Below, piece by piece: positions 24,253-60,644 of a stretch of DNA of 64,000 bases. The position numbers were made by a program, and so were the translations under genes. The stretch is from assembly GCA_030390025.1 (NCBI GenBank), contig CM059432.1, positions 100,194,001 to 100,258,000 of the forward strand, written 5' to 3'. The notes under the pieces are model-generated. The model was not told where the DNA came from. It searched no databases and saw nothing but the letters and a program-made list of their open reading frames with translations. Positions within the stretch are counted from its first letter, which is position 1. The number at the start of each line of letters is the position of its first letter. The stretch comes from Squalus acanthias. Lineage: Eukaryota.

Positions 24253-24441
24253 GGCCTGCATTTAGCATTAAGAATAACAGTGAGGCTAACAGCGCTCAAC
24301 ATTATTATGGAGCAAATCGGTCAGCAACTTCCGGAGTCTGCACATGCGCACTTAAATGTGGAAAACAGGAAGTTGCTGTCCAATTTACCCTGCTCTTCCA
24401 CAAGCTTTGCTCCACCGGTACCTTGCTGATAGACTCAGCAT

Positions 24442-27400
24442 TGTAAGGGGTTCCGGCGTGCTTGTATCGCAGACGGTGCTGGTGCGAGGTTAGGCCTTCT
24501 TTGCCTAATACTATTGCTTGCTCTGGTCTCCGGCCAGCCTTGTTGCAATAAGCACCTGTGAGTGGTTCGACCCACTCGCCCTTACGGTTCTAACACTGGA
24601 CTTAGGTGCGAGAGCAGCAATGCAGAGAAAAACTCAAATAGACCTGGTTGAATAGTACGAAATGGAAATCTTTATTGCATAGCGTCCAAAATCATGAAGT
24701 ACATGTCATAGGTGCAAATTAACGAGAGTACAAGTATACATACATTCATAAAGCTTGGTCTATTGTAGAATTCGCAATATATCGCGATTTTATTAATAAG
24801 GAGAAAACACAGAGTTTCGTTCAAACAGCTTTTATTTCAGCAGAATGCTGTCAGGTTTCTCAAAGTGGACACAAGCAGCCTGTAAAATGGCCGCCGCACC
24901 TCGTGGCAGAACATTCTAGACTTTTCGACAAGCAGACAAGATGGCGTTCCAATAAACATTTGTGCAAGATCGATTAAGATTCAGCACATTGAAGATAACA
25001 CACGAGACATTATGGGTTTACAGTATACACATAAATACTGAAATCGGTCTCCCAGGTACGAATGAAAGCTATTGTACCAAGTAATCAAGGGCCCATCCAA
25101 AGACATTAATATGTAAAATCCCAACGACTCTACGATGAGAGAGCCGTTAGCGGGTAGTTATACAAAACACTTGGAAGCCCCAAAACCCCTCCAGGGAGAA
25201 CACCGACCGATTTAACAATGGGAGAAATATTAACAGGTACTCAGACATTTACGAGTAGCCCCGAAACCCATTAAGAACGGAGATCACCCATACAAGACAT
25301 TTGAGCGCCAAACCCAAACAAAAGAAAGGACATTAAGGTTGGGCGGGAAACGGAAGATTTTGTACTATAATTACAAGCTCCAACCGTCCATCTTTCTCTT
25401 ATTCTCTTATCCGATCGACTCGTAACCTCGTGGCTGCTCCTGTGTTTTGACTCGTAGTCTTGTTCCTGCTTTGCCTGGTGCCTCTTTGAAAAAGACTGTT
25501 GAACTTTATGATCCGTTCGGATCTACCTCGTGTCGCGTAACGAAGACCTATGTTGGTAACTGGCATCGGAACCAAAGGCCCGAGATGAGATGAGAAGAGA
25601 GGAAGACCATACTCATCGCCACGGTCAGTAAGCCCCGACCGCGCCTGTAGGTCGAATAGCCAAGTTTCCTTGCCAGGGAGACTTCTTTGAACTTGCAAGA
25701 ACAGACCTCGGAAGATCCTCCAAGATGATATTGACTGGTCTGTGAAACCCATTCGGACAGTGCCTGTTAAACCAACCAACACAGATCTTCATCACAGCAG
25801 ACGTTCCAGCCTGCTAGCCGGAGCAGAAGCAAGTAAACAAGTGGGACCAGGAGACCTCCTGATCGATACGTGGGTGCTGCGGTGAAAAACATCCGATCAG
25901 CTATTCGGAATTTCTCCGAGTTATCACGAGTGGTGAGCATGAGTCTCGAAATCCTACGAATCTAGCTAGGACAGATATTGATAGGGGAGGGTTTAAGTAT
26001 TAAGGATACTTGTAATGTGTGCCCCTATTTACGGTGTGTCGTTCGTTCCTCGTTTCCCTAAAATTAGTTATATAACTGCATGTAAGATTGTATTGTCATT
26101 AATCTGTGCTTATGACATGTATTTCATAATCTTAAATATCATGCAATAAAGATTTTCCATTTCGTACCATTCAACCGAGTCTACATGAGTTTCATCTCCA
26201 TTACTGCTCTCGCATCTAAGTCCAGTGTCTAGAACCGTAAGGGCGAGTGATTCGAACCACTCACAGGTGTGTCTAGTGCTTCCAGACTGGCTGGAGACCA
26301 GAACAGGCAACAAGGCCTAAACTCGCACTGACATACAGGCTGCACAGAGCCGCGTGAATCTCACAGGCTGCGAGACACGCACGGTCAAATCCCTTACACT
26401 ATGGTAATGAAGAACACACGGCACATCGTAAAAAGGGGAACACGTTATACTTTATCCTTAATAGAACCACCCTCCCCTATCAATACCTACACTACATCTA
26501 GATTTGTAGGATCGGGAAACATGCTCACCACTCGTGATACTTCGGAGAATTTTAAAGTGAGGCACTCGGCTCGTTTCGCTGCAGCGCCTGACTGTCACGT
26601 GTTTGGCGGGGTCTCTGTACCCCACTTGTTTATCTTCGCTGCTGCGGCAAGCAGGCTGGGCTCCCCGTTGTCATGAAGAACTCGACAGCACTCGGGCCCG
26701 GCTGTAGAACTCAAAGAAAAGTCTTCCTGTACCGACACCAGTTGTCGGTAGAATTCAAAGAAGAGTCTTTGACCGGTTCGTGCAATAACCTGTAGAGTTC
26801 AAGAAGTGGGTCTTATATTTTCAGGCGCAGTCGGGGTTTACTGACCGCGGCGGCACGTGGATTCTTCTTCTTTTCTTGTCATTTCGTCTTGTCTTGTTGG
26901 GCCTTCGGGTCCAGACACCGTTTACCGACTCTCGGGATGGTGCACCCGATCACTTGCCTTCGTCGAGGCGGCTCGTTCCGATTGAGCTCCACCCAACATT
27001 CGAATAACCGTCCAGTGCGGCTAAAGTCCAGAGTCAACAGAGTCCAGAGAAAACGCAGAAGGCTGCTCGTCCAGCAGAGCGATACCCGAGGATCAGAATA
27101 ACAGAATAAGAGTTCAGCCCGAGTCAAGAGTCAGCAGAGAATAAGAGAGCGATGGACATTTGTTCACTATAGTTATAGTGCTGTGTTCCCTTATCTCCCG
27201 CTCAAATCTTAATGTTTGTCCTTTGTGAAATATTGGCGCTCAAAACTCCCAGCATGGGGCGATTCTTGTCTTTAACGGGTTTCGGTAGCACCTGAAACTG
27301 GCCAACTACCCGTTAATGTTTTCCCCATTGTTGAACCGGCTAGGAGCCTTCCTGGCTGGGGTTTGGGGGCCCCCGAATACTTGTTTAATCACCTGAGAAT

Positions 27401-27784
27401 GGCTCTCTCATTGTAGAGCCGTGGGGGTATTTGTGTATTGATGTGTCTGGATGGGCCTTCGATTGCCCAGTATAATGGTCCTTACTTGTGCATGGAAAGC
27501 GATTCCAGCACTCATATCTTTTGCTATTGTCACAAATGCAAACAGGTTGCATCCTGTCTTTATCAGTGCTTATCGAGTATGATCCCATCTTATATTGAAA
27601 TGTTTATTCGAACGCCATCTTGTCTGCCCACTGTAATTCTGGAAGCTTCTGCCACGATGCGCGGTGGCCATTTTACAGGCTTCTGTGTCCTTTTTATCAT
27701 GACAGCATTTCGTTTAAATAAACTGATCAAACGAATCTGCTTCTATCTTGTTATTTCGAATCGCGATAATTGCGAAACTTTACA
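24442..27784 (-). mobile_element. Solo LTR A2, interrupted by LTR B1
   Basis: TGTAA...TTACA; TSD GCAT (24438-24441 and 27785-27788); colinear with A1. Confidence 0.92.
24764..26398 (+). mobile_element. Solo LTR B1 (1635 bp), nested in A2 in opposite orientation
   Basis: TGTAG...TTACA; TSD CTAT (24760-24763 and 26399-26402). Confidence 0.92.
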
Positions 27785-28029
27785 GCATTAAAATCCATGT
27801 AAGGGTATGAAGTTGCTGTACGTACCCACTAGTTACCCATTAAACACGCCCAAACTAGTTAGAGCTGATGCTTTGGGATGTAAGTGAATTTTTAATGGCA
27901 TGATAAATCTTAATTACTGCCAAACAACCTTTCTGGCACTGAAAATGTAATTTTACAAGTGTGGAGTCTCATTCCTTCAGAATTTAGTAACTGTTGGAGA
28001 TTTATCAAAATAATTTAAATTTAAAAAAT

Positions 28030-28950: not shown

Positions 28951-30094
28951 GAGTGACAAAGGAAACCCTGAAAGCAATTCCCATTTTAATGAGCTTTCTG
29001 ACGGCACAATCTGTGAATCTGCAGCTTCTGATGCCTGACAGGTGAGAACCGACCTCAGCTGTAGTATTTGTTTCATATGGGTAGATTTAGGACATTGCAC
29101 ATCCACTGCATGAAAATTAGAATTTCGTAGGGCTTCTCCTTAACAAGCAACAATCCAGAAATTAACAAGCATAACATGGCTAAGGCACGGTACAGGAGAT
29201 GTGACGCACTGCCGGTTGACAGTGTGATTTCTGGCAGATGTAAGGCAGGGAGGAGGTGAAACTATCAACCCCCAATATCACTAACCAGTATTCCTGAATT
29301 GCTACTGTCATAATGCTTTATGCCAATAAAAAAAAACTATAAGCTTCGACCAATACTGATTCTTGCAATACTTGGGCTAGAGGAAAAGAATGGACATTCT
29401 GGCCCTCAATTTCCCAATCCACTGTTGCAACTTCAGCAGGACACCTGGAGAAAACTGGTACATTTTTTTAAAATTCATTCACAGGATGTGGGCAGTCACT
29501 GGCAAGGCCAGTATTTATTGCCCATCCCTAATTGCCCTTGAGAAGGTGGTGGTAAGCGCCTTTTTGAACCACTGCAGTCCGTGTGGTGAAGGTAATCCCA
29601 CAGTGCTGTTAGGTAGGGAGTTCCAGGACCCAGTGACAATAAAGAAACGCTGATATATTTCCATGTCAGGATGGCGTGCAACTTGGAGGGGAACTTGGCG
29701 ATGATGGTGTTCCCATGCGCCTGCTGCCCTTGACCTTCTAGGTGATAGAGGTCACGGGTTTGGGAGGTGCTGTCAAAGAAGCCTTGGCAAGTTGCTGCAG
29801 TGCATCTTGTAGATGGTACACACTGCAGCCACGGTGCGCTGGTGGTGGAGGAGTGAATGTTTAAGGTGGTGGATGGGGTGCCAAACAAGTGAGCTGATTT
29901 GTCCTGGATGGTTTCGAGCTTCCTGAGTGTTGTTGGAGCTGCACTCATCCAGGCAAGTGGAGAGTATTCCATCACACTCCTTACTTGTGCCTTGTAGATG
30001 GTAGAAAGGCTTTGGGGAGTCAGGAGGTGAGTCACTTGCCGCAGAATACCTAGCCTCTGACCTGCTCTTGTAGCCACAGTATTTATGTAGCTGG

Positions 30095-31749
30095 TGTAAA
30101 ATTCGCAATTATCGTGATTCGAAATAACGAGATAAAGCAGATTCGTTTCATCAGTTTTATTTCAACGAAATGCTGTCATGATTAAACAGGACACAGAAGC
30201 CTGTAAAATGGCCACCGCACCTCGTGGCAGAAGCTTCCAGAATTTTCAGTGGGCAGACAAGATGGCGTTCGAATAAACATTTCAGTATAAGATTGGTTAA
30301 TACGCAGCAAACACTGATAAAGACAGGATGCAACCTGTCTGCATTCGACACAATAGCAAAGATATAAGTGCTGGAATCATTTTCCATGCACAAGTAAGGA
30401 CCATTGTACTGGGCAATCGAAGGCCCATCCAGATACATCAATACGCAAATTCCCCACGGCTCTACAATGAGAGAGCCATTCTCGGGTACTTACACAAGTA
30501 TTCGGAGGCCCCCAAAACCCCGCCAGGGAGGCTCCTAGCCGGTTCGACAATGGGAAAAACATTAACGGGTAGTTGGCCAGTTTAAGGTGCTACCGAAACC
30601 CATTACAAACAAGAATCACCCCATACTGGGAATTTTGAGCGCCAAGATTTTACAAAGGATGAACATTAAGATTTGGGCAGGAGATAAGGGAACACAGCAC
30701 TATAACTATAGTGAACAAACGTCCATCGCTCTCTTATTCCTCTGATCCTCCCGGCGCTGATTCGTTTGAACTGACTCTGGACGCGGGCTGAACTTTTATT
30801 CTCCTATGTTGGGTGGAGCTCAATTTGGAACGAGTCGCCTCGACGAAGGCCAGTGACCGGGTGCACCATCCCGAGGGTCGGTAAACGGTGTTCTGGACCC
30901 GAAGGCCCGACGAGACGAGATGAGAAGAGAAGAAGAAGAATCCACATGCCGCCGCGGTCAGTAAACCCCGACCGCGCCCGTAAATATAAAGACGATTTTT
31001 GAACTCTATCAGGTTGCTGCTGAACCAGTGGAAGACTCTCTTTCGAATTCTATCGACAACCGATGTCAATACAGGAAGACTCTTCTTTGAATTTTACCGG
31101 TTAACTGGTGTCGGTCCAGAAAGACTTTTCTTTGAATTCTACAGCCGGGCCCGAGCACTGTCGAGTTCTTCATGACAACGGGGAGCCCAGCCTGCTAGCC
31201 GGAGCAGAGAAGATAAACAAGTGGGGTACAGAGACCCCTTCCAACACGTGACAGTCAGGTGTTGCAGCAAAACAAGCCGAGTGCCTCGTTTAAAATTCTC
31301 CGAAGTATCACGAGTGGTGAGCATGTTTCCTCGCTCCTACAAATCTAGATTAGTGTAGGTATTAATAGGGGAGGGTGGTTTTATTAAGGATAAATATAAT
31401 GTGTTCCCCTTTTTATGATGTGCCGTGCGATCCTCATTACCCTAGACCAAGTTTTATGAATGTATGTATAATTGTACTGTCATTAATTTGTGCCTATGAC
31501 ATGTACTTCATGATTTTGGACGTTATGCAATAAAGATTTCCATTTCGTACTATTCAACCGGGTCTATTTGAGTTTTTCTCTGCATTACTGCTCTCGCACC
31601 TAAGTCCAGTGTTAGAACCGTAAGGGCGAGTGGGTCGAACCACTCACAGGTGCTTATTGCAACAAGGCTGGCCGGAGACCAGAGTAAGCAATAGTATTAG
31701 GCAACGAAGGCCTAACCCTGCTCAAGCACCCTGAACCGAACCCCTTACA
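30095..31749 (+). mobile_element. Solo LTR A3 (1655 bp)
   Basis: TGTAA...TTACA; TSD CTGG (30091-30094 and 31750-31753). Confidence 0.92.
30670..30710 (+). promoter_or_regulatory. Putative LTR core promoter (E2F-like/GATA motif plus TATA-like element)
   Basis: gatttgggcaggagataaggg...tataactata; equivalent motif in A1, A2, B and LTR C (gatttggcgggtagataagg...tataatt); YY1-like CAAGATGGCG upstream. Confidence 0.5.
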
Positions 31750-34700
31750 CTGGTCCAGTTAAATTTCAATGGTTATGCCCAGGATGGTGGCCGATTCGGC
31801 GATGGTAATGCCTTTGAATGTAAAGGGGAGGTGGTTAAACTCGCTCTTGTTGGAGATGGTCATTGCCTGTCACTTGTGTGGCGTGAATGTTACTTGCCAC
31901 TTATCAGCCCAAGCCTGAATGTTGTCCAGGTCTTGCTGCATGCAGCCACGGATGCTTCATTATCTGAGGAGTTGCGAATGGAACTGGACACTGTGCAATC
32001 ATCAGCGAACCTCCACACATCTGACTTATGATGGAGGGAAGGTTATTGATGAAGCAGCTGAAGATATTTCGGCTTAGGACACTGCCCTGAGGAACTTTTG
32101 CAGCGATGTCCTGGGGCTGAGATGATTGACCTCCAACAACCATAACTATCTTCCTTTGTGCTAGGTATGACTCCAGCCAGTGGAGAGTTTTCCTCCTGAT
32201 TCCCATTGACTTCAGTTTTACTAGGGCTCCTTGATGCCACACACAGTCAGATGCTGCCTTGATGTCAAGGGCAGTCACTCTCACCTCACCTCTGGAATTC
32301 AGCTCCTTTGTCCATATTTGGAACAAGGCTGTAATGAGGTCTGGAGCCGAGTGGTCCTGGCAGAACCCAAACTGTGCGTTGGTGAGCAGGTTATTGGTAA
32401 GTGCCGCTTGATAGCACTCGACAAGCCCATCCATCACTTTGCTGATGATTGAGAGTAGGCTGATGCAGCATTAATTGGCCGGATTGAATTTGTCCTGCTT
32501 TTTGTGGACAGGACATACGTGGGCAATTTTCCTCTTTGTCAGGTAGCTGCCAGCATTGTGTCTGTACCAGCACAGCTTGGCTAGAGGCGAGGCTAGTTCT
32601 GGAGCACAAGTCTTCAGCATGACAGCCAGAATGTTGTCGTGGCCCATAGCCTTTACTGTATCCAGTGCGCTCAGCCGTTTCTTGATATCACGTGGAGTGA
32701 ATCGAGTTGGCTGAAGACTGGCTTCTGTGATGGTGGGGACCTCAGGAGGAGGCCAAGATGGATCATCCACTTGGCATGTCTGGCTGAAGATGGTTGCAAA
32801 CACTTCAGCCTTGTCTTTTGCACTCACGTGCTGGGCTACGCCATCATTGAGGATGGGAATGTTCATGGAGCCTCCTCCTCCCGTTAGTTGTTTAATTGTC
32901 CACCACCATTCACGACTGAATGTGGCAGGACAGCAGTGCTTTGATCTGATCTGTTGGTTGTGGGATCACTTAGCTCTGGCTATAGCATGCTCCTTTCGCT
33001 ATTTAGCATGCATGTAGTCCTGCGTTTTAGCTTCACCAGGTTGGCACCTCATTTTTAGGTACGCCTGATGCTGCTCCTGGAATGCTCTTCTACACTCCTT
33101 ATTGAACCAGGGTTGGTCCCTTGGCTTGATAGCAATGGTAGAGTGAGGGATATGCCGGGATGTGATGGAATACAGTTCTGCTGCTGCTGATGGCCCACAG
33201 CGCCTCATGGATACCCAGTTTTGAGCTGCTAGATCTGTGCTGAATCTATCACATTTAGCATGGTGGTAGTGCCACACAACATGATGGAGGGTGTCCTCAG
33301 TGTAAATACAGGACTTTGTCTCCACAAGGACTGTGCGGTGTTCATTACTACAAATACTGTCATGAACATCTGAGACAGGTAGATTGGTGAGGATGAGGTC
33401 AAGTCGGGTTTTCCCTCTTGTTGGTTCTCTCACCGCCTGCCCCAGGCCCAGTCTGGCAGCTATATCCTTCAACACTACAGACGGGATGTTGTCGGGGCCC
33501 ATAGCCTTTGCTGTATCCAGTGCGCTCAGCCGTTTCTTGATATCATGTGGAGTGAATCGAGTTGGCTGAAGACTGGCTTCTGTGATGGTGGGGACCTCAG
33601 GAGGAGGCCGAGATGGATCATCCACTCGGCCCCCTCAGTCAGTAGTGGAGCTACCGAGCCACTCTTGGTGATAGACATAGAAGTCCCCTACCCAGATTGC
33701 ATTCTCTGCCCTTGCTGCCTTCAGTGCTTCTTCCAAGTGGTGTTCAACATGGAGGAGTATTGATTCATCAGCTGAGGGAGGGCAGTAGGTGATAATCAGC
33801 AGGGGGTTTCCTTGCCCATGTTTGACCTGATGGTGTGAGACTACATGGGATCCGGAGTCAATGTTGAGGACTCCCAGGGCCACTCTGCTGACTGTATACC
33901 ACTGTGCCGCCACCTCTGCTGGGTCTGTCTGGGACATTGGCTGAAATGTATGATCCTGAGAGTATGATTGTTGACTTGACTAGTCTGTGGGACAGTTCTC
34001 TCAATTTTGGCATAAGTCCCTAGATGTTAGTGAGGAGGACACTGCAGTGTCGACTGGGCTGTGTATGCCTTTGTCGTGTCCGAATCCGATGCCTAGGTCG
34101 ATGCCCGGTGGTTCATCTGATTTTATTCTTATTATACTTTTGTCATTGCAGTTTGGTACAACCACATTGGTGTGAGTCTGGACTCACATATAGGGCGATC
34201 GGGTAAGAACAGCAGAATTCCTTCCCTAAAGGACATTAATGAACCAGATGGGTTTGTACGACAATCCGGGAGTAAAATGGTCACCAATACTACATGGTCA
34301 CCATTATTGATGCTATCTTTTTAATTCCAGATTTTTTTAATTAACTGACTTTACATTCCCCAGCTGCCATGATGGAATTTGAAATTGTGTCTCTCGATCG
34401 TAAGGCCAGGCCTTTGGGTTACTAGCCTTGTAACATAACCACTGTGCTAGCGTAACCCCCCCTGAATGTGGCTGGAAACAGTAGTTTCTGAAGTTATAGC
34501 AGGAGATTGGGACAAAACCCGTGGAAATTCAGGCCCTCTGTGCTGAAGTGTAAACACAAGAAATGTGTGTATACAGCTTTTGAATATCAGTCTGAAGAAA
34601 GTGATGAATATAAATGTGGAGACTGTCAATCTTGACATTTCTCCACTGTCAATTTTAAGCTCTGTCGTTAGAACATTTGGAATATGGTGATCTTGCGTGG

Positions 34701-41932: not shown

Positions 41933-42702
41933 CCTATAATTCCATCGCAGTGTGAAATCACATTTTAAAAGTGCCCAAATAGTCCATGGGAATGTCATAA
42001 TCTCATTTATCAATATTTTTAATGTTAGGAGATAAAGGATGCTTCCACCCACTCTCAGTGAGCATTAATAATGAGTTGTCCAGGCGGGATGCTCTGCACA
42101 TGCCTCCAAGCTCATTTGTTGCTGACCTCAGAGCGACCCACAATGATGTGCACTTATCTTCAAACTCAAGGCTGCCAAATGCGCTCCCGCATCTCAGTAG
42201 TTGGGCAGAGACTGTGAGCTGCTGTATTAATGCAACTTAAAATAGCTCCCAATAATTTATATTTAGCAATCCTGATCGTGATTTGGGGAACCAACAGCTT
42301 TTGAATTAAACAAATTCTGGCTCTTCTGTAACATGTGCTTTTCAAAAAAAAATAGGGTATGCAAGTAAATAGTGTTTCTTCATCACTAATGGTAGAAACA
42401 TTAAGGAATAAATTTGCACCCCGTATCATAATTACATAAATAACAAAATCTGTGCATCTTATCTCATTAACAGCAGCAGTGCCCAAGACACAGGCCATGA
42501 ACTGAATTAATCCCACAGGCTCCTTTTGCCTAACCTGTGGTTTCTTTCTTTGTGTGCATTTTTGCATAATGCAAGCTAGCTAGCTTACTAGTAAAAAGAC
42601 TTGCATTTATATAGCGCCTTTTATGACCACAGTATGTCCCAAAGCACTTTACAGCCAATGAAGTGCTTTTTGAAGTGTTGTCACTATTGTAATGTAGGAA
42701 AC

Positions 42703-42790
42703 GGTAACATAGTGGATATGTTACTGGACTAGTAATCCAGAGGCCTGGACTAATAATCGCGGAGACATGAGTTCAAATCCCACCACGGCA
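42703..42790 (+). promoter_or_regulatory. tRNA-derived internal Pol III promoter of the LINE head
   Basis: A-box-like TAACATAGTGG (TAGCGTAGTGG in T1); anticodon-like arm CTGGA-CTAGTAA-TCCAG; B-box-like GAGTTCAAATCC. Confidence 0.75.
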
Positions 42791-45673
42791 GCTGGGGAAT
42801 TTAAATTCAGTTAATTAAATAAATCTGGAATAAAAAACTAGTATTAGTAATGGTGACTGTAAAAACCTATCTGGTTCACTCATGTCCTTTAAGGAATGGA
42901 AGGAAATCTGCTGTCCTTACCTGGTCTGGCCTATATGTGGCTCCAGACCCACAGCAATGTGTTGACTCTTAAATGCCATTTGAAATGGCCTAGCAAGCCA
43001 CACAGTTGTAACAATAATAATAAGAATAAAACTGGATGGATCGACCTAGGCACCGGCTTCAGACACGACAATGGCACACCCAGCATATTGACCCTGCAAA
43101 GTCCTCCTGACTAACACATGGGGACTTGTATCAAAATTGGGAGAGCTGTCCCACAGACTAGTCAAGCAACAGCCTGACATAGTCATACTCACAGAATCAT
43201 ACCCTTCAGCCAATTGAACCAGACTCCTCCATCCAGAGGTGGCAGTACAGTTGGGAGGGAGTGGTCCTGGGAGTCCTCAACATTGACTCTGGACCCTATG
43301 AAGTCTCATGGCTTCAGGTCAAGCATGGGCAAGGAAACCTTTTGCTGATTACCACCTACCGTCCTCCCTCAGCTGATGAATCAGTACTCCTCCATGTTGA
43401 ACACCACTTGGAAGAGGCACTGAGGGCAGCAAGGGCACAGAATGTTCTCTGGATGGAGAACTTCAATGTCCATCACCAAGAGTGGCTCGGTAGCACCGCA
43501 CAGTATTTGTGGAGAAGAGGTCCCGTCTTCACACTGAGGCCACCCTCCATGGTGTTGGGTGGCACTACCACCATGCTAAATGGGATAGATTCAGAACTGA
43601 TCTAGCAGCTCAAAACTGGGCATTCATGAGGCACTGTGGGCCATCAGCAGCAGCAGAATTGTATTCCACCACAATCTGGAACCTCATGACCTGGCATATC
43701 CCTCACTCTATCATTACCATCAAGCCAGGGGACAAACCCTGGTTCAATGAAGAGTGCTCAGGAGCAGCACCAGGCATACCTAAAAATGAGGTGCCAACCT
43801 GGGGAAGCTGCAACACAGGACTGCATGCATGCTAAATAGCAGAATCAGCATGCTATAGACAGAGCTAAGCGATCCCACACTCAAAGGATCAGATCAAAGC
43901 TCTGCAGTCCTGCCACATCCAGCTGTGAGTGGTGGTGGACAATTAAACTACCAGTGGGAGGAAGAGGCTCCCTGAATATTCCCATCCTCAATGATGGTGG
44001 AGCCCAGCACACAAGTGCAAAAGACAAGGCTGAAGCATTTGCAACCACCTTAAGCCAGAAGTGCTGAGTGGATGATCCATATCGGCCTCCTCCTGAGGTC
44101 CCCACCTTCATACTGAGCACACTGGATACAGCAAAGGCTATGGGCCCCGACAACATCCCGGCTGTCGTGCTGAAGAATTGTGCTCCAGAACTAGCCGCGC
44201 CTCTAGCCAAGCTGTTCCAGTACAGCTACAACACTGGCATCTACCTCACAATTTGGAAAACTGCCCAGGTATGTCCTGTCCACAAAAAGCAGGACAAATC
44301 CAATCCAGTCAATTACCGCCCCATCAGTCTATTCTCAATCATCAGCAAAGTGATGGAAGGTGTCGTTGACAGTGCTATCAAGCAGCACTTACTCACCAAT
44401 AACCTGCTCACCGATGCTCAGTTTGGGTTCCGCCAGAATAACTCGGCTCCAGACCTCATTACAGCATTTGTACAAACATAGACAAAAGAGCTGAATTACA
44501 GAGGTGAGGTGAGAGTGACTGCCCTTGACATCAAGGCAGCATTTGACCGAGTGCGGCATTAAGGAGCCCGAGTAAAATTGAAGTCAATGGGAATCAGGGG
44601 GAAAACTCTCCACTGGCTGGAGTCATACCTAGCACAAAGGAAGATGGTTGTGGTTGTTTGCGGTCAATCATCTCAGCCCCAGGATATCGCTGCAGGAGTT
44701 CATCAGGGCAGTGTCCTAGGCCCAGCCATCTTCAGCTGCTTCATCAATGACCTTCCCTCCATCATAAGGTCAGAGGTGGGGATGTTCGCTGATGATTGCA
44801 CAGTGTTCAGTGACATTCGCAACTCCTCAGATAATGAAGCAGTCCATGTCCGCATGCAGCGAGACCTAGAGATTCAAGTTTGAGCTGATAAGTGGCAAGT
44901 AACATTCACGCCACATAGGTGCCAGGCAATGACTAACTCCAACAAGCGAGAGTCCAGCCACCTCCCCATGACATTCAACAGCATTACAATTGCCAAATCC
45001 CCCACCATCAACATCCTGGGGGTCACCATTGACCAGAAACTTAACTGGACCAGCCACATAAATACTGTGGCTACAAGAATGGGTCAGAGGCTGGGTATTC
45101 TGCGGCGAGTGTCTCACCTCCTGTCTCCCCAAAGCCTTTCCACCATCTACAAGGCACAAGTCAGGAGATGGAATACTCTCCACTTGCCTGGATGAGTGCA
45201 GCTCCAACAACACTCAAGAAGCTCGACATCATCCAGGACAAAGCAGCCAGCTTGATTGGCACCCCATCTACCACCTTAAACATTCACTCCCTCTACCACC
45301 GGCGTACCATGGCTGCAGTGTGTACCATCTACAAGATGCACTGCAGCAACTCGCCAAGGCTTCTTCGACAGCACCTCCCAAACCCGCAATTTCTACCGCC
45401 TAGAAGGACAAGGGTAGCAGGCGCATAGGAACGCCATCACCTATAAGTTCCCCTCCAAGTTACACACCATCCTGACTTGGAAATATATCGTTGATCCTTT
45501 ATCGTCTCTGGGTCAAAATCCTGGAACTCCCTTCCTAATGGGAGAACCTTCACCACACGGACTGCAACGGTTCAAGAAGGCGCCTCACCACCACTTTCAC
45601 AAGGGCAATTAGGGATGGGCAATAAATGCTGGCCTTGCCAGCGACGCCCAGATCCCATGATCAAAGAAAAAAA
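42703..45673 (+). mobile_element. tRNA-headed LINE copy T3 (most complete): head, ~400-bp leader, single decayed EN-RT ORF, tail
   Basis: EN start (KLGELSHRLVKQQPDIVILTESY) near 43130; YRPP; GPDNIP; NYRPISL; QFGFR; DIKAAFD; QGSVLGP; FADD. Confidence 0.9.
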
Positions 45674-46408
45674 GCAGCAGCCAATTTGTGCACCAATAGC
45701 TCCCACAAACAGCAATGGGATAATGACCAGATAATCTGTTTTGTAGTGATGTTGATTGAGGGATAAATGTTGGCCAGAGGCGTGGCTGCTATTTAAAGGA
45801 ATCCTGCAGCATCTTAAAGGGATATGCTTTTTACAGTGGTGAATAGCATGCAGTGAGACAGTGCAGCAGCAGTCAATATGACTGTGACCAGGGCCCCCAG
45901 GATCTCTGATGCAGCAGCGGAGGTGCTGATTGACCAGTGACCAACAGGAAGGAGGTCCTCTTGCCCTCTGATGGATGATTGGTTATAAGAACAGTGCCCT
46001 GTAAAACTGCCCAAAGGTTTGTTTTTGAGATTTGTAAAGGAAATAATCTGTAAATCGCCTATGGATTCCAATACAATGTGAAGTTTAGCTGTTGAACTGA
46101 ATGCTGGGAAGAAAATAGTTAATACAGGCTTTTAAGCAATTGAGTTGTAACATCATTATCCCTAGCTCAGGTCCAGCGAAGAAGCACTTAGTGAGATGTA
46201 AACAGGTCATGACCCCTCATTTTTGTGTGGGTCCCTTTATTAAAACTAAGGTAAAAGGCGGGGTGGGGTGGGGGGTGTTGCAAAAATGGAGCTGGCCTGT
46301 CTGACAATCAATGCTGACATGTTTCAGGATGACTGACACAAAATGGGGCAAGCCCTCTGACACATGGCTTACTCAGAAGAAAAGTTCTTCTTTGTCCTTG
46401 ATAGATGT

Positions 46409-49022: not shown

Positions 49023-50081
49023 GTACTTTAGAAAGGTTCAAAACATATCAGAAAACAAAGATAAGCCAGCCCCTCTCTCCACAGTGAGTACATCTCTGCA
49101 TGATTTTATTTTCCAGTACAATGGAAATTCCAAAACCCCAAAGTTAGTAGCACTATTCTCAGCAATAGCACTGCATGTTACAGGTAGAAACGAAAACAAG
49201 CAAGCTTCTTCTATCGATGCTGGTTTAAAATAGATCGACATGGAACTTCCAGTTAAAGACAAAGCTGTTCAATCAGACAATAAGTGGCAGGAAGCACTAG
49301 AGGGTAAGATATTAAACTAACCTATCAGCTGGAGATCAGAGGAGAAGAAACAAAGGATTTACAGTTCATAAAAATGATATTATCTTGTGAAAATTGGTAC
49401 CAACAAAAAAATTGTATTGTAACAGATATTTTCAAAATACCTGCTTTGCTGACGTTTAACATAGCATCAGGTCCCATCAAAAACAGTAGGCCTGAAATGA
49501 ATGGCCTTAATTGTTCAGGAGCCTTTGCATCTAACCTCACAGATAAACCTACAGGAGAGTTCAGTTTGTTCCTTATACGAGATGCTTGATGCAGAACATT
49601 TGTTATCACCATGGGAAGTAACATTTAACTTATGAGGGGTTTGAAATTGAAGGCACACAGAAAGTATTGATAAGCAAGTAAAACCGTGCAAGAGAAGAAT
49701 TGGGAAACTGATTATTTTGTTCAATATCAATTTGCCACCAGTCCGTAATGAACAGAAACAATCTATTCCAACAAATCAAGCCCTGCTAATAACTAAATGT
49801 CTGATCTTCCAATGCTACACAAACAATTGACAACGACAACAGAAGTGCCAAAACAAAAGGGTTGTACATTAGGAATAAATATTTAGATGTATCCAAAGGC
49901 AACCCTGGTTTCAGATTCAGATTCAAACTCCTTCAAAAATGCCTTAAGTCTAATTAAATCACATTCCAGAATGTATATGCAAGCAAAAATTTGTTTTCTG
50001 ATTTATTATTTGAAAAGATTGACTAGTACACTTAACCTAGGACAGTCCATTCAATCCAAAAAAGTGTATTAAATTACATGA

Positions 50082-51749
50082 TGTAGAATTCGCAATATAT
50101 CGCGATTTTTATTAATAAGGAGAAAACACAGAGTTTCGTTCAGACAGCTTTTGTTTCAGCGGAGTGCTGTCGGGTTTCTCGGGGTGGACACAAGCAGCCT
50201 GTAAAATGGCCGCCGCACCTCGTGACAGAACATTCTAGACTTTTCGACAGGCAGACAAGATGGCGTTCCAATAAACATTTGTGCAAGATCGATTAAGATT
50301 CGGCACATTGAAGATAATACACGAGACATTATGGGTTTACAGTGTGCACATAGGTACTGAAATCGGTCTCCCAAGGTACGAATGAAAGCTATTGTACCAA
50401 GTAATCAAGGGCCCATCCAAAGACATTAATATGTAAAATCCCAACGACTCTACGATGAGAGAGCCGTTAGCGGGTAGTTATACAAAACACTTGGAAGCCC
50501 CGGGGCCCCTCCGGGGAGAACACCGACCGATTTAACAATGGAAGAGATATTGACAGGTGCTCAGGCATTTGCGAGTAGCCCCGAAACCCATTGGGAACGG
50601 AGATCGCCCATACAGGACATTTGAGCGCCAAACCCTAACAAAAGAAGGGACATTGAGGTTGGGCGGGAAACGGAAGGTTTTGTACTATAATTACAAGCTC
50701 CAACCGTCCATCTTTCTCTTATTCTCTTGTCCGATCGACTCGTAACCTCGTGGCTGCTCCTGTGTTTTGACTCGTAGTCTTGTGCCTGCTTGCCTGGTGC
50801 CTCTTTGAAAAAGACTGTTGAACTTTCTGATCCGTTCAGGATCTACCTCGTGTCGCGTAACGAAGACCTATGTTGGTAACTGGCATCGGAACCAAAGGCC
50901 CGAGATGAGATGAGATGAGATGAGATGAGATGAGATGAGATGAGAAGAGAGGAAGACCATACTCATCGCCACGGTCAGTAAATCCCGACCGCGCCTGTAG
51001 GTCGAATAGCCAAGTTTTCCTTGCTAGGGAGACTTCTTTGAACTTGCAAGAATAGACCTTGGAAGATCCTCCAAGATAATATTGACTGGTCTGTGAAACC
51101 CATTCGGACTGTGCCTGTTAAACCAACCAACACAGATCTTCATCACAGCAGACGGTCCAGCCTGCTAGCCGGAGCAGAAGCAAGTAAACAAGTGGGACCA
51201 GGAGATCTCCTGATCGACACGTGGGTGCTGCGGTGAAAAACATCCGATCAGCTATTCGGAATTTCTCCGAGTTATCACGAGTGGTGAGCATGAGTCTCGA
51301 AATCCTACGAATCTAGCTAGGACAGATATTGATAGGGGAGGGTTTAAGTATTAAGGATACTTGTAATGTGTGCCCCTATTTACGGTGTGTCGTTCGTTCC
51401 TCGTTTCCCTAGGATTAGCTATATAACTGCTTGTAAGATTGTACTGTCATTAATCTGTGCTTATGACATGTATTTCATAATCTTAAATATCATGCAATAA
51501 AGATTTTCCATTTCGTACCATTCAACCGAGTCTACATGAGTTTCATCTCCATTACTGCTCTCGCATCTAAGTCCAGTGTCTAGAACCGTAAGGGCGAGTG
51601 ATTCGAACCACTCACAGGTGTGTCTAGTGCTCCCAGACTGGCTGGAGACCAGAACAGGCAACAAGGCCTAAACCTGCACTGACACACAGGCTGCACAGAG
51701 CCGCGTGAATCTCACAGGCTGCGAGACACGCACGGTCAAATCCCTTACA
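50082..51749 (+). mobile_element. Solo LTR B2 (1668 bp) with A>G-hypermutated U3
   Basis: TGTAG...TTACA; TSD ATGA (50078-50081 and 51750-51753); colinear with B1. Confidence 0.93.
50902..50945 (+). repeat. (GAGAT)n microsatellite expansion in LTR B2
   Basis: About 8 units versus about 2 in B1. Confidence 0.95.
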
Positions 51750-53886: not shown

Positions 53887-55858
53887 TTAATGTCTATTTC
53901 AGAGTTACAGTGCATGAGCTGAAAACAAACAACAGTTATCCCAGGAAGATGGTAGTTTCCCTGAACTTACTGGCAGTCTAAAGGTTAATTGATGATAAAT
54001 TGACAGTCACACTCACTAAAGTAATAATTGTAGCTGACATCCTACATCCTAATAATAAAAAAGTAAATAGGTAATGAATTACAGCCAGTTATACCTATGC
54101 AATTGCAAGGCCACCTCCCAAAATTTATAATTACAGATTAAATGTTAATAATAAATATGACACAAAATTCCCTCAGACATTCCGCTAGATGCCTGTAATA
54201 ACCCTGTCTGCCCCGCACAAGGCTACTTATGCATAGGGAGAACGGCTGGGGTGCGGGAAATTTCTTTGCTCGGAGTCCCCACTTCTTCAGTCCACAAGGA
54301 ATCCGGCCTAACACCGAAGGCTGGTATACCCAGTGATATGAGGCATTCTGGATCTTCAGAAGGGCAGAAGTGGGCCCCACCAGGGTGTGGTGGGGGGATT
54401 CAGAACAGGTTGGTGGCCTGGACCCCTAAAGAAAGGTAGAATTTGTTTTAAATTATGGATCAGCTCCCTTACACAAAGCCTGGGGGCCGGTGGGGAGGGG
54501 TTGGGTGGTTTATGGGGTGTCCAGGATGGAGGGGAGAAAGACCTGGAACTGCAAGCCCTCCGCAAATGAGGTGCCATTTTACTGACCCTGCAAACGTCGA
54601 TGGGGTCAGCACTTAAATGCTCCAATGGGCATGAACCCAGTGTATCTGCTAGACAGAAGAGGGAGAGTTTCATGCAACATTATTGGCAATAATAAGTTCA
54701 CCTTAAATTAAAACAAATATTTCCATGCTCCTTCCAGCAGTAGCAGTTTCCCATCTGGTCAAACACCAACTGCTTGTTTTTTTTTTATTCATTCACGGGA
54801 TGTGGACGTCGCTGGCGAGGCCAGCATTTATTGCCCATCCCTAATTGCTCTTAAGGTGGTGGTGAGCTGCCTTCTTGAACCGCTGCAGTCCGTGTGGTGA
54901 AAGTACTCACACAGTGCTGTTATGTAGGGAGTTCCAGGATTTTGATCCAGCAACAATAAAGGAACGGCAATATATTTCCAACTTGGTATGGTGTGTGACT
55001 TGGAGGGGAACTTGGAGGTGGTGGTATTCCCACGTGCCTACAGCCCTTGTGCTTCTCGGTGGTAAGAGGTCGCGGGTTTGGGAGGTGCTGTCAAAAAAGT
55101 CACAGTACGCCGGTGGTGGGGTGAGTGAATGTTTAAGGTGGTGGATGGGGTGCCAACCAAGCTGGCTGCTTTGTCCTGGATGGTGTTGAGCTTCTTGAGT
55201 GTTGTTGGAGCTGCACTCATCCAGGCAAGTGGAGAGTATTCCATCACACTCCTTACTTGTGCCTTGTTGATGGTAGAAAGGCTTTGGGGAGTCAGGACAT
55301 GAGTCACTCGCCACAAAATACCCAGCCTCTGACCTGCTCTTGTTGCCACAGTTTTTATGTGGCTGGTCCAGTTGAGTTTCTGGTCAATGGTAACCCCCAG
55401 GATGTTGATGGTGGGGGCTTCGACGATGTTAATGCCATTGAATGTCAAGGGGAGGTGGTTAGACTTTCTCTTGTTGGAGATAGTCATTGCCTGTCACTTT
55501 GTGTGGCACAAATGTTACTTGTGACTTAACAGCACAAGCCTAAATGTTGTCCAGGTCTTGCTGCATTCGGCCACGGACTGCCTCATTATCTGAGGAGTTG
55601 CGAATGGAACTGAACACTGCGCAATCATCCCCACTTCTGATCTTATGATGGAGGGAAGGTCATTGATGAAGCAGCTGAAGATGGTTGGGCCAAGGACACT
55701 GCCCTGAGGGACTCCTTCAGCGATGTCCTGCGGCTGAGATGATTGGCCTCCAACAACCACAATTATCTTCCTTTGTGCTACGTATAACTCCAGCCAGTGG
55801 AGAGTTTTCCCCCTGGTTCCCATTGACTTCAATTTTAATAGGGCTCCTTGATGCCATA

Positions 55859-56280
55859 CTCCAGTCCCACTCCAGAGACTTGAGCATAAAAATCTAGGCT
55901 GACACTCCAGTGCAGCGCTGAGGGAGAACTGCACTGTCTGATGTGCCATCTTTCAGATGAGATGTTAAACCGAGGCCCCTTCTGCTATCCCAGGTGAACA
56001 TAAAAGATCCCATGGCACTAATTCGAAGAAAAGCAGGGGATTTATCCCCAGTGTCCTGGCCAATATTTATCCCTCAATCAGCATAACACAAACAGATTAT
56101 CTGGTCACTTTCCCATTGCTGTTTATGGGACCTTGCTGTGCGCAAATTGGCTGCCACGTTTTCTACATTACAACAATGACTACACTTGAAAAGTACTTCA
56201 TTGGTTGTAAAGCGCTTTGAGACGTCCAGTGGTCGTGAAAAGGCGCTATCTAAATGCAAGTCTTTCTTTTTTTCTTTTTT
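55859..56280 (+). mobile_element. DeuSINE
   Basis: Deu-domain plus gcgctatctaaatgcaagtcttt tail. Confidence 0.85.
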
Positions 56281-56751
56281 ACTCGGTCAAATGCTGCCCT
56301 GGTGTCAAGGGCAGTCATTCTCACCTCACCTCTGGAATTCAGCTCTTTTATTCATGTTTGGACTGAGGCTGTAATGAGGTCTGGAGCCAAGTGAGCCTGG
56401 TGAAACCCAAACTGAGCATTGGTGAGCAGTGCTGCTTGATAGCACTCTCACTGACCCCTTCCATCTCTTTGCTGATGAGTAAGAGTAGGCTGATGGGCGG
56501 TAATTGGTCAGATTGGATTTGTCCTGGTTTTTGGGGACGGGACATACCTGGGTAATTTTCCACTTTGTCAGATAGATGCCAGTGTTGTAGCTCTACAGGA
56601 ACAGCTTGGCCCCCTTGTAGCAGCTGTTAAGTGGTAGATTGTATCAATGCAGAGATTAGACAAGCATGTCGTAAAGGCAGAGTGGTTTTAATGGGGGATT
56701 TTAACTTTCATATAGATTGGGATAAGCAGACTAGCACTTATCAGAAAGGTC

Positions 56752-57140
56752 GGGGGGAATTTTTCGGGAGTCTGCGGGCGCGTTCGATGGTGGGTCAGGT
56801 GGGAAAATGTTTTTTTTTGACAGTGGGTCGGGACCCCACTGTGAACCCGCTGTCACGTGCCTTTCCCAGATGTCGGATCTGTCAGCGCTGAACAGACCCA
56901 ACACACAGCGGCAGGGGAGGCAATTCAGGTCCTTATGATCTTGTTAACAGACCATTAAGACCATCAAATGATGTCATCAGACCCGCTTCCTTCAATTGGC
57001 TGGCAAACGCGCTGGGCGGGCTTAACAAGTCCAATCAGGGCAAAATCATTTTGAACAGCGGGCTGGACCCAGCAGCAGGATTGGGACCTGCCACTGACCT
57101 CGCCCGCCACGGACCCGCTGAGCTTGGTAAAATCCAGCCC
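56752..57140. mobile_element. Harbinger-type MITE
   Basis: Ends ggggggaatttt / aaaatccagccc. Confidence 0.75.
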
Positions 57141-57561
57141 ATAGTGAATTTCTTGAGTGTGTGCGGTATCGTTTTCTCCAACAATATGTCCTAGAAACAA
57201 CAAGGGGGGGATGTCATATTGATTTAGTAATGAGTAATGGGCCAGATTTAACCCTAACGGTGCGTGAACATTTAACTTATAGCCATCATAACTTGATCGA
57301 GTTCAAAGTACTGTTTGAAAGGGAGAAACACGCAACAGCTACTAAAATTCTAAATTTTGTTAAGACTGACTTCACTGCCATGAGACAGAGACTGTCCACA
57401 GTAAACTGGGCAAATCTGTTAATGGGTAAAATGACAAAAGATCAGTGGGAGGTGTTCATCAAAGAATTAAATGTGATACAGAAACAGTTTGTACCCTAAG
57501 GGGCAAGAGCTCTACTTGCCAAAAAAAACAGCCATGGACAACTAAAGAGGTAAGAGACAAC

Positions 57562-58305
57562 GGCCCAGAAATTGAACTCGCTCTGTTCCCGCGGGGGTAA
57601 GCCTTTCCCGCGATGTCTCACCTCGCTTATGCTTTTTCTGATCCAGCTCGCACGAAATTGATGTTCTGGACAGCTGCTGTGCTGGGCTTGCGTATCCCAG
57701 CGGCGTAGTTAATTCGTGCGAGCTGTGGGATCACGTGACTCAGTTAGAGCCAATGGCAGCACACCATCTTCCATTCATAAGTCTCACAGCATGGCTGAGA
57801 GACTTATGAATCTTACACCCCCCCAAAATAACAGCTAAACCTCAATTAAATTAAAAAAAAACCCCATCACATTAATAAAATAAGTATAGTTAATTAAATT
57901 AACCATTTTAAATAAAAAATTAAATTTTTGAAAAAATTTAAAATCTTTTAAAAAGTTATAAAAATAAACTTACCTGTCTTTAAAGTCTATAAAAAAGATA
58001 TACCTGTAAAAAAAAATTCAAAAAAATACTTAATTCACTACTTACCTTCTTAAAAGCGGGTCTTACTCCTCCTTTTTACATTTCCAAAATCTTCAGTACT
58101 TACCTGCGCGTCCAAAGCATGAAGTGCACAGCGTGCGCGCAGCCTGTAGCGCGCACGCGATGCACTCCGGCCCCGCCCCCTTTTCGGAAGAGCAATTGCC
58201 GGTTTTCAGCGCATGCGCAGGGCATGCAGAAAACCGGCAATTGGAGTGGGAATACGCGAGAGTATGCAGTGCGTACTCTCGCGTCCCGGGATCAATTTTC
58301 GGCCC
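57562..58305. mobile_element. Harbinger-type MITE (744 bp; sister of 16523-17228)
   Basis: TIRs ggcccagaaattga / tcaattttcggccc; TSD AAC. Confidence 0.9.
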
Positions 58306-60644
58306 AACATAAAACTAAAAGAAATAGCATACAAAAATGCAAAAAAAATAGCACGGATCCTGGCGAATGGGAAAGATGCAAAGATCAGAAAGGGGTGACA
58401 AAACAAATAGTAAGAGCTACAAAAAGGGAGTATGAAAAGAAACTTACAAGGGATATCAAAATCAATAGAAAAAAATGTTACAATTATATTAAGAAAAATG
58501 GGATGGTCAGGAGCAATGTTGGCCCCTTGAAAACTGCTAACGGTGATATTGTCTACACTCTACACATAAAGGGTGGCAGATGTTTGGAACTCTCTTCCGC
58601 AAACGGCAATTGATGCTAGATCAATGGTTAATTTTAAATCTGAGATTGATAGATTTTTGTTCACCCAAGGTATTAAGGGATATGGGGCAAAGGCGGGTTT
58701 ATGGAGTTAGGTCACAGATCAGCCGTGATCTCATTGAATGGCAGAACATGCTTGAGGGGCTAAATAGCCTTCTCCTGTTCCTATGTTGTTGGGGCCCATA
58801 GCCTTTGCTGCATCCAGTGCGCTCAGTTGTTTCTTGATATCATGTGGCGTAAATCGAATTAGCTGAAGACTGGCTTCTGTGATGGTGGGGACCTCAGGAG
58901 GAGGCCGAGATGGATCATCCGCTGAAGACGGTTCAGCCTGGTCTTTTGCACTTATGTGCTGGGCTCCGCCATCATTGAGGATGGGGTGGTCATGGAGCCT
59001 CCTCCTCCAGTTAGTTGTTTAATTGTCCACCACCATTCATGACTGGATATGGCAGGACTGCAGAGCTTTGATCTGATCCGTTGGTTGTGCGATCACTTAG
59101 CTCTGTCTATAGCATGCTGCTTCTGCTGTTTAGCATGCATGTAGTCCTGTGTTGTAGCTTCACCAGGTTGGCACCTCATTTTTAGGTACACCTGGTGCAT
59201 GCTCTTTTACACTCCTCATTGAACCAGAGTTGGTCCCCTGGCTTGATGGTAATGGTAGAGTGAGGGGTATGCCGGGCCATGACGTTACCGATTGTAGTGG
59301 AATACAATTCTGGTGCTGCTGGTGGCCCAGAGTGCTTCATGGATGCCCAGTTTTGAGCTGCTAGATTTGTTCTGAATCTATCCCGTTTAGCACATTGGTA
59401 GTACACACAACACGATGGAGGGGTCCTCAGTGTAATGTCGGGACGGGACTTTATCTCCACAAGGACTGTGCGGTGGTCACTCTTACCAATATAGTCGTGG
59501 ACAGATGCATCTACGACAGGTAGATTGGTGAGGACGAGGTCAAGTAGGTTTTTAAGCTCGTGTTGGCTCTCTCACCACCTGCTGCAAGCCCAGTCTGGCA
59601 GCTATGTCCTTTAGGACTCAGCCAGCTCGATCAGTAGTGGTGCTACCGAGCCACTCTTGTTGATAGACATTGAGCACATTCTGTGCCCTTGCTACCCTCA
59701 GTGCTTTTTCCAAGTGGTGTTCAACATGGCGGAGTACTGATTCATCAGCTGAGGGAGGGTAGCAGGTGGTAATCAGCAGGGGGTTTCCTTGCCCATGCTT
59801 GACCTGATGCCATGAGACTTCATGGTGTCTGGAGTCAATGTTGAGGACTCCTAGGGCCACTCCCTCCTGACTATATCACAGTGCCACCACCTCTGATGGA
59901 TCTGTCCTGCCGGTGAGACAGGAAATACCCAGGGATGGTGATAGAGGAGTCTGGGACGTTGGCTGAAAGGTATGTTTTTGAGAGTGTGACTATGTCAGTG
60001 ACACCTTCCCACTGCTAGCTCTAGGCAAACGAACAGGTACTCAATGGAGGCAACTTCCAAGATGAATCGCACTTTCACTGTATTGAATTAAGTATCCATC
60101 AAATGTGTAGTGCATTGCTTCCAAGTCAGGGAATAAAAATGATTTGGGCAAACCCAAGTTTTGTTAATAGAATATGTCACAGCCAGTATGAAAAATGAAT
60201 TTTATGTCCACTCATGAGATTCATAGTAACTCACTCACAATCTTATATGGTCGGTTATATTTATGGGAATAAAAGTCATACTTCACAGCTGGTCATTATG
60301 TTTTCAATGTTTACTGCTGCTGTTTGGGTTAGGCCATAGGTGACTTCTAATTTTTCAATGTTTTATGACCAATATCAGAAGTTTGTAACTTTTCTTCCCC
60401 ACTCCCCAAATAAAGCCTGCAATTAGGCCAAAGGGGAAGTCGCGATAAATTCCATTTTATATTTAGATAGCTAAAATTAAATAAAAGTAAATAGGCAGCC
60501 GGCATTTTAGTCATTCTGGCTCAAATAACACACATTTTACGAGATGACAATAGCTTGTTTTTTATTATTGTGCAAGCTAGTAATCAATAACTGAGTGCCA
60601 AATGAATTTATCAACATTCAAAACACATCCATATTTTTAATCAT

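Follow-up and report, generated by a model that had tools for sequence, protein, structure and literature searches.

A tRNA-headed Zenon LINE of Squalus acanthias, poor in T-runs and lacking an AUG start, is a candidate for transcription by Pol III

We analysed a 64,000-nucleotide stretch of Squalus acanthias DNA (contig CM059432.1; hereafter the window) and found that the element flagged near position 42,703 is a dead insertion of a Zenon LINE. The combination that drew attention to it, a tRNA-derived head joined to a single endonuclease and reverse transcriptase (RT) ORF with almost no T-runs on the sense strand, is real and family-wide. End-to-end transcription by Pol III is the best explanation of this sequence pattern, and we think it probable that the family represents an autonomous, Pol III-transcribed, ORF1-less LINE with AUG-less, non-canonical translation. 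A more detailed version, in which a 3.3-kb coding RNA made by Pol III is translated without cap or AUG via a tRNA mimic with a modified loop, and in which the element also spawns SINEs, appears doubtful as a complete package. The features of the flagged copy and the other copies in the window are listed below.

42697–45673, + strand: whole Zenon LINE copy of an older head subfamily, 5′-complete and dead (BLAST against the 23-copy majority sequence: 1–893 and 1056–3297)
42697–42796, + strand: tRNA-derived head with a Thr-AGT-like loop (Rfam tRNA 15.4 bits, E 3.1; relaxed ARAGORN)
42705–42715, + strand: A box, with one substitution in the flagged copy
42724–42761, + strand: anticodon arm and, at the variable-loop position, a near-duplicate second arm
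42769–42780, + strand: B box
42797–42857, + strand: AT-rich spacer in which TTT is present and TTTT is absent
42858–43008, + strand: leader core, near-invariant by eye among the five consensuses published for sharks and rays; the SINE derivative retains all of it
42981–43005, + strand: hairpin with a 7-nt anticodon-like loop, C-U-AGC-A-A
42985–42993, + strand: in-frame mini-ORF AUG-GCC-UAG inside the hairpin (loop U at 42991)
43012–45612, + strand: single APE-endonuclease and RT ORF, broken in the flagged copy (973 codons in the majority)
45601–45673, + strand: 3′ tail stem-loop and A tail, the portion common to the SINE derivative (fold z −2.7)
42595–42696 (left) and 45674–45777 (right), strand not given: older short repeat, the insertion target of the flagged copy
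5641–7791, + strand: second headed copy, missing element 149 to 1246 through a private deletion
29462–34453, − strand: third headed copy, broken up by other repeats
54777–59998, − strand: fourth copy, 5′-truncated at element position 517 and interrupted
14246–19808, + strand: CR1 copy serving as in-genome control, with 32 sense T4 runs

The window thus holds four large copies of the element, together with some fragments. Three of these (42697, + strand; 5641, + strand; 34453, − strand) have the tRNA-like head in common, as had been noted. The start originally placed at 42703 does fall in the head, but the true 5′ end lies 6 nt upstream at 42697, genomic copies beginning with GGGAAC; in the flagged copy these bases overlap the target repeat. 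That repeat, which may be a Deu-type SINE, is split by the insertion, and both its halves match contiguous copies at 10837–11245 and 55865–56271. The flagged copy carries a 166-nt endonuclease deletion, several smaller deletions and three stops in the RT region, and the region of the GCU codon discussed below is gone (15 nt deleted after 43014). The copy at 5641 has 143 nt of head left before its 1.1-kb deletion, which was spanned by none of the 39 other scored hits. The T4 runs reported at 43340, 34274, 55093 and 55315 are all present, with one extra run at 29470 in a tail, and the CR1 copy does contain the many sense T4 runs attributed to it.

We assign the element to the elasmobranch Zenon LINE family of the CR1 group. 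The first 400 nt of the SquAca_Zenon-1 consensus, the length compared by eye, match our majority sequence. Both the family and its missing ORF1 are already published: PMC13343379 reports, in the passages covered, Zenon from sharks, rays, coelacanth and hagfish, with ORF1 always absent and a poly-A tail. In the available text of that study the word ‘tRNA’ occurs in neither the main text nor the supplement text and Pol III is absent from the main text; the passages covered make no mention of the missing AUG or of a SINE derivative. The tRNA head is nevertheless present, unremarked, in the published consensuses. All five elasmobranch sequences inspected by eye over 400 nt (SquAca, CarCar, HypSab, RhiTyp and ScyCan) begin with it, and the hagfish and coelacanth consensuses, three in all, have no head at their start.

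A first look at the 3.7-Gb genome gave 12,496 candidates with the head region and 40,557 with the whole copy as query, 40 of each being scored, and we fetched 40 head-picked and 40 RT-picked loci. The RT-picked set was drawn from 114 non-self hits and consisted of the 20 with the longest open frames and the first 20 others. The head continues into the ORF in 36 of the 40 head-picked loci, a figure biased by a query that included the start of the ORF. Nine of the 40 RT-picked loci reach element positions 1–3 (6/20 and 3/20, respectively), and the other 31 are truncated at scattered positions from 127 to 1730. Longer or differently headed copies, with ORF1 or another promoter upstream, were looked for and none was present among the RT-picked loci, nor did these show an alternative 5′ end or, at the junction, a shared upstream sequence; of 12 matches between flanks, none links two junctions in the same orientation. 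Target-site duplications were considered as a family feature and discarded, only one 8-mer and three 5–6-mer matches being seen among 19 copies scored.

The majority sequence was built from 23 full-length copies (22 genomic and the flagged one, 91–97% identical to it). It comprises 3,305 nt plus an A tail, and poly-A tails are seen at the 3′ ends of the 22 genomic copies. Its single frame of 973 codons contains PF14529 and PF00078, both above cut-off. In agreement with the claim that there is no ORF1, this frame directly follows a non-coding leader of ∼335 nt and the endonuclease motif begins ∼40 codons in. The absence of ORF1 does not count as evidence for Pol III, because it is reported for every Zenon element, with or without a head (PMC13343379, in the parts covered). 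The closest database homologues are 32–38% identical and mostly single ORFs of ∼960–1,000 aa, with cluster members named from shrimp and sponge; they are called with a start codon just before the endonuclease, a soft observation since gene callers impose a start. A quick RT tree, which included no named Zenon reference, sets the element apart from the in-genome CR1. A sequence search of the PDB with the endonuclease part and protein scans of viral contigs gave no match.

In the head, an A box is followed by a Thr-AGT-like anticodon arm, its duplicate and the B box; as in the heads of SINEs, there is no acceptor stem. Its likeness to tRNA is real but degenerate. The Rfam tRNA model, whose gathering score is 29, gives lower values of 15.4 bits (E 3.1) for the flagged copy and 22.1 bits (E 0.033) for a better copy (L075). 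Default ARAGORN calls nothing in the window, and relaxed ARAGORN calls a tRNA in 13 of the 23 full-length copies and in the majority. A strict pattern for the A and B boxes matches 11/23 full-length copies against 0/41 control upstream regions, and a loose pattern 16/23 against 1/41. Compared by eye across the published species consensuses, both boxes are kept, the B box in canonical form, and there are two compensatory changes in the second arm. Among copies within the genome the boxes are not extra-conserved (mismatch 0.032 and 0.043 for A and B, against 0.031 for the ORF), a decay like that of the rest of the element which is expected because the copies are dead. A pattern search for an older head subfamily like that of other sharks gave no match.

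Human Pol III terminates efficiently at T4 or T5 and not at isolated T3, with T3VT and TVT3 acting as weak terminators (PMC3141230, in the passages covered). The 3,305-nt sense strand of the majority contains no T4, 7 TTT and 14–15 A4, and the T-run result is identical in both head subfamilies (25 and 20 copies). The earlier statement that no sense T4 is shared between copies held at this larger scale: 13 of the 23 full-length copies are free of T4 and each T4 position occurs in at most two copies. In 284 kb of copies there are 41 T4 against 1,254 A4. A count of zero has P 0.016 against a base shuffle. Set against codon-shuffled controls, the majority has the predicted zero, but only 1.8–2.0 runs are expected (P 0.10–0.15), and the absence of T4 taken alone is weak, borderline evidence.

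The avoidance of T-runs is most clearly seen in TTT, whose depletion is strong and upheld by all four null models (P ≤ 0.009). The ORF contains 5 TTT, compared with 11.3 expected from a synonymous shuffle (P 0.0045), 16.5 from a third-position draw (P < 0.001) and 11.2 from a codon-order shuffle (P 0.009). The weak terminators T3VT and TVT3 are absent where 3.7 are expected (P 0.025). Phenylalanine makes up 1.8% of the ORF against 2.3–5.6% in 20 homologues, and its codons are biased towards TTC (15:3). Downstream of the A tail, the first T4 in the flank lies 7–547 nt away in 22 copies (median ∼100 nt). A separate T4-rich Zenon subfamily was also considered; it proved to consist of in-frame fused CR1 insertions, with 0–1 T4 in the Zenon parts themselves.

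Control sequences do have T4. From 80 metagenome loci we obtained 61 with an ORF of at least 450 aa, and all 61 related ORFs contain T4, with a median TTT observed/expected ratio of 1.12 and a lowest value of 0.62, compared with 0.30 for Zenon; these controls are for the most part from genomes richer in T and are mainly single copies, whereas the Zenon value is from a majority sequence. Five control ORFs fall within the element's 26-row clade in the quick RT tree and have 3–36 T4 each. Two LINE families from the same genome behave likewise: the CR1 majority (16 copies) has 11 T4 in 1,926 nt, and 9 T4 and 38 TTT occur in a LINE ORF matched for T content (0.208).

These comparisons bear on the foremost alternative, a Pol II element with a captured head. 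Its 5′ end would then be a leftover, serve as an RNA structure or belong to a Pol II promoter, and its poverty in T-runs would reflect a C/A-rich codon bias or selection against U-rich signals for splicing or decay. LINEs are regarded as Pol II units (PMC10886601 and PMC5786205, in the parts covered), an AATAAA lies ∼50 nt before the A tail, the P value for the absence of T4 alone is about 0.1 under codon-preserving nulls, and the A and B boxes show no extra conservation among copies. Against this, LINE controls from the same genome keep T4, including the one of matched T content, as do the headless clade-mates, and the 5′ end of the element is as sharp as that of a SINE. A capped RNA would, moreover, still face eight upstream AUGs and no in-frame start. 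We regard a Pol II element, with its two accounts of the T-runs taken together, as unlikely.

The start of translation is unusual whichever polymerase is involved. No shared in-frame AUG had been seen before the endonuclease, and indeed the first methionine of the ORF is codon 287, past the endonuclease domain. None of the eight AUGs of the leader is open into the ORF, so a non-canonical start is needed. The in-frame AUG at element position 303 has a strong context and is followed by UAG and, here, UAA. Its canonical use or readthrough is disfavoured, as two stops follow in most copies and no stop-free lineage was seen; stop-free copies number 157 of 2,529, near the 4% given by independence of the two sites (from single-site counts of 24 and 18 among the first 100 matches listed). 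A frameshift from the out-of-frame AUG at position 358 was likewise rejected, since 32 of 66 copies have AUA there and the main frame is the one favoured by shared variants.

The AUG at 303 opens the mini-ORF within the leader hairpin, and an in-frame GCU lies ∼10 nt beyond the stem. It is complementary to the AGC of the loop, the pairing being only 3–4 bp. By eye, the published consensuses of four other species keep the GCU but have variable linkers, and the distance from there to the first conserved residues shifts by whole codons only; no compensatory change in the AGC–GCU pair was seen in the five consensuses. The loop U (42991) is a per-insertion hotspot, the only one of 645 T sites that changes to both G and C. 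Copies with G and with C have no private variants in common and the change is unlinked to subfamily, while source lineages retain the U even where the second stop makes the UAG redundant. The loop is thus probably structured, modified and under selection. The leader as a whole folds no better than shuffled sequences (z about −1), Rfam gave no IRES match to it at E ≤ 10, and for the apical loop that lies just upstream of the hairpin the stem list contained no PKII partner. A homologue search with the leader returned one match in viral contigs and none in prokaryote genomes.

The hairpin and the in-frame GCU together form a candidate start device, and a full dicistrovirus-type IRES was not found. 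The hairpin might pair as an anticodon mimic with the GCU so that decoding begins at the next codon, which is the device we prefer, though tentatively; another structure-driven or a near-cognate start is quite conceivable, at somewhat under an even chance. Reinitiation after the AUG-GCC-UAG mini-ORF seems rather improbable. Reinitiation has reportedly been seen at ORF2 of L1. A PKI-like start was once imagined for non-LTR elements (PMC3894237, in the passage covered).

We next consider whether the ORF was used, taking variants common to several copies as a record of the evolution of the source elements. For the 23 headed copies, shared variants gave an omega of 0.24 (27N:35S), compared with 0.80 for singletons. 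With 112 loci, from which 10 duplicate or array loci had first been removed, the contrast was 29N:33S for shared variants against 1501:492 (Fisher P 2e-6). The majority frame is open in both subfamilies and the dN/dS check gave purifying selection, with omega about 0.25 (0.24–0.33 for shared variants). Upstream of the first methionine the catalytic columns of the endonuclease are conserved, and the variants there (9N:9S, omega 0.33) are borderline (P 0.056). Purifying selection on shared variants argues that headed elements made their own protein. No fully intact ORF was found in any copy, the longest open Zenon frame being 834 aa, so the family may be inactive in the S. acanthias genome; a few intact copies, from a ray and from whale shark, are listed in PMC13343379.

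The head, leader and tail of the LINE also occur together as a 390-nt SINE. The joint between leader end and tail is present in contigs of three sequencing runs, possibly of RNA, and the genome contains 134 exact matches to the junction and none to a reversed control. Of 30 fetched junction loci, 17 reach position 7 or less, and these carry the lineage-specific head of the LINE. With patterns of its own, the long form gave 1,663 and 2,529 exact matches, the latter ∼19-fold more than the SINE (2,529 against 134, with patterns that differ in stringency). The head itself may first have come from such a SINE through a template switch. Compared with the traits of a SINE2, the LINE starts at a fixed 5′ end with a tRNA-derived head that contains A and B boxes, and it has no internal Pol III terminator, but only the 390-nt derivative is short and non-coding. 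MetaSINEs have a Meta domain after a tRNA-Thr-like head; by eye, the element does not resemble the bivalve MetaSINEs in the alignments covered (PMC4824008), and identity with MetaSINE was rejected.

The SINE derivatives show that use in trans occurs, which brings in a second and still less likely alternative, a division of roles in which Pol III makes the template RNA and the protein comes in trans from Pol II read-through RNAs of headed copies. Such a division would account for the sharp 5′ end and the terminator avoidance, the copies are very numerous (40,557 candidates), and Pol III RNAs are known to retrotranspose efficiently with ORF2p in trans and without need of ORF1p (PMC2666806, in the passages covered). 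The purifying selection in source lineages is, however, easiest to explain by action in cis, the long form exceeds the SINE by the margin given above, and an AUG-less frame needs a special start anyway.

The other branch of the original prediction, a ‘giant SINE’ in which a non-coding Pol III passenger carries the LINE ORF and depends for its mobility on a headless autonomous partner, could appeal to the missing in-frame AUG, to the want of a fully intact copy and to the well-known tRNA-headed bipartite LINE derivatives (PMC5786205, in the passages covered), but it is largely refuted and very improbable given an ORF open for 973 codons in both subfamilies, the omega of 0.24–0.33, a headless full-length partner absent among 40 RT-picked loci and a head in five of five published elasmobranch consensuses (by eye).

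The autonomous branch is the one that the open ORF and its omega favour. End-to-end transcription by Pol III likewise agrees with every sequence comparison proposed for it (no T4 in the majority, no other heads, T4 in the controls), and use of the polymerase is what we infer from them. Under the autonomous, Pol III-transcribed reading, the ancestral Zenon 5′ end would have been replaced by a tRNA-derived head before or across the shark–ray split. TFIIIC would bind the A and B boxes inside the element, and Pol III would start at the fixed 5′ G, read 3.3 kb free of T4, T3-V-T and T-V-T3, and stop at the first T4 in the flank. The uncapped RNA would then be translated through the conserved leader, without the AUG that the frame lacks, and, by analogy with the family, the endonuclease–RT protein would bind the 3′ stem-loop and copy the RNA by target-primed reverse transcription. 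Loss of the interior turns such a LINE into the 390-nt SINE, in which head, leader and tail are kept. PMC10886601, in the passages covered, treats non-LTR elements as Pol II units and holds that Pol III processivity limits SINE length, to ∼1.3 kb or less; by that measure the 3.3-kb length of the element counts against Pol III.

If the Pol III reading is correct, the element would be a protein-coding gene naturally transcribed by Pol III, would point to a start element in the cell that works without a cap, and would put directly to the test the view that Pol III RNAs can do without ORF1p (PMC2666806, as far as covered). In the literature outside Repbase, Dfam and subscription journals we found no description of a Pol III-driven autonomous LINE or of a tRNA head on Zenon, and the element is not described in the parts covered of PMC4824008, PMC5499810, PMC1513397, bioRxiv 443036 and PMC10886601. 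The classical division is between LINEs, which are coding and transcribed by Pol II, and SINEs, which are non-coding and transcribed by Pol III. A LINE with a tRNA promoter retained in both sharks and rays, 3.3 kb purged of terminators and a lost AUG would break it. The promoter of human L1 was once said to be Pol III-dependent.

The comparisons that follow rest on the passages covered in each source, except for Persaeus. The leader hairpin resembles PKI of the type 6 IGR IRES (PMC12221177; bioRxiv 2024.04.17.590008) in its anticodon-like loop, in the complementary codon before an AUG-less ORF and in the short, variable, A-rich linker before that codon. It differs in that the PKII and L1.1 motifs were not found, Rfam gave no match and the pairing is only 3–4 bp; on present tests the leader is not a member of this class. 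R2 (PMC6765202) is also a single-ORF, autonomous element without a capped Pol II mRNA and is thought to use IRES-like translation at its 5′ end, but it is site-specific, is co-transcribed by Pol I and freed by an HDV ribozyme, and carries an RLE nuclease; no ribozyme was seen in the Zenon element. The published elasmobranch Zenons (PMC13343379) are like our element in their ∼3.3-kb length, APE and RT domains, missing ORF1 and poly-A tail. RTE-1_DAn and elements related to it (PMC5786205) are LINEs with tRNA-like sequence matching SINE2 heads and show that a tRNA-bearing LINE is not without precedent; they belong to another clade and are cited there as a source of unwanted hits, with no claim as to position, promoter or terminator. 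Persaeus of Lepidoptera (PMC6740152) arose, like the 390-nt derivative, by internal deletion of a Zenon and, unlike it, has no Pol III promoter. The bipartite SINEs Bov-tA, SINE2_Gav and CoeSINE4 (PMC5786205) combine a tRNA head with LINE-derived parts as the derivative does, but there it was the short form that gained the head and the partner LINE has none, whereas here the coding LINE is itself headed. Birth of a SINE in one step, by internal deletion of a headed LINE, would be the reverse of the usual model in which the head is added later.

The U of the anticodon-like loop (C-U-AGC-A-A) in the Zenon leader hairpin, at element position 309 (window 42991), is replaced by C, G or A in about one quarter of insertions. 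The bases at this position were T45/G9/C7 in the LINE copies, T17/C3/G3/A2 in the SINE copies and T76/C16/G6/A2 in the first 100 of the genome-wide matches, with no link between the variant base and subfamily. In contrast to the variable loop U, 10 further CTAG sites were quiet or almost quiet. The variation at 309 looks like misreading of a modified base by the reverse transcriptase. At the matching site of the published catshark consensus (PMC13343379), the base is printed as a lower-case letter.

In the 390-nt SINE (loci L208–L237), element 1–325/333 is fused to 3238/3240–3305. Its junction has 134 exact matches in the Squalus acanthias genome, and there are at least three junction types, every one of which stops at the hairpin's 3′ foot. 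Joints resembling the SINE's are also present in sequencing runs from other organisms. Within the full-length element, 5–7 bp could form between 87–93, where the tRNA head finishes on its 3′ side, and 224–230, in the apical loop of the long leader hairpin. By eye, this pairing is possible in all five published consensuses examined; covariation cannot be judged because the core is invariant.

Two annotated proteins, P0021 and P0094, from sevengill shark and manta ray, contain Zenon-derived stretches (72–80% identity), which are probably gene-model artefacts. A single Zenon copy carrying an in-frame CR1 insertion has been amplified as a 5–6 kb block, and the chimeric frames that result stay open for as much as 971 aa. 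The blocks (L270, L272, L282 and L287) are 96–99% identical and lie for the most part on small contigs; that at L270 adjoins a short tandem repeat.

A separate LINE family, which we take to be L1/Tx1-like (L268, L269, L271, L273, L274, L280, L281 and L286), has open frames reaching 1,306 aa and some copies in tandem, spaced about 7.2 kb apart; recent activity is therefore probable. A further multi-copy family (>1.6 kb), nested within Zenon and CR1 copies, gave no match in an RT search:

Window 1405–3058, repeat copy
Window 24441–27787, repeat copy
Window 30094–31730, repeat copy
Window 50066–51749, repeat copy

The headless clade-mates L112 and L115 have a short 5′ motif in common, GCGGATGAG, then a stem, then CAACGGCC:

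L112, positions 392 and 451, two tandem units
L115, position 181, motif

By eye, the motif is seen also in the published hagfish Zenon-2. It bears a faint likeness to the hammerhead, and an Rfam search with it gave no match.
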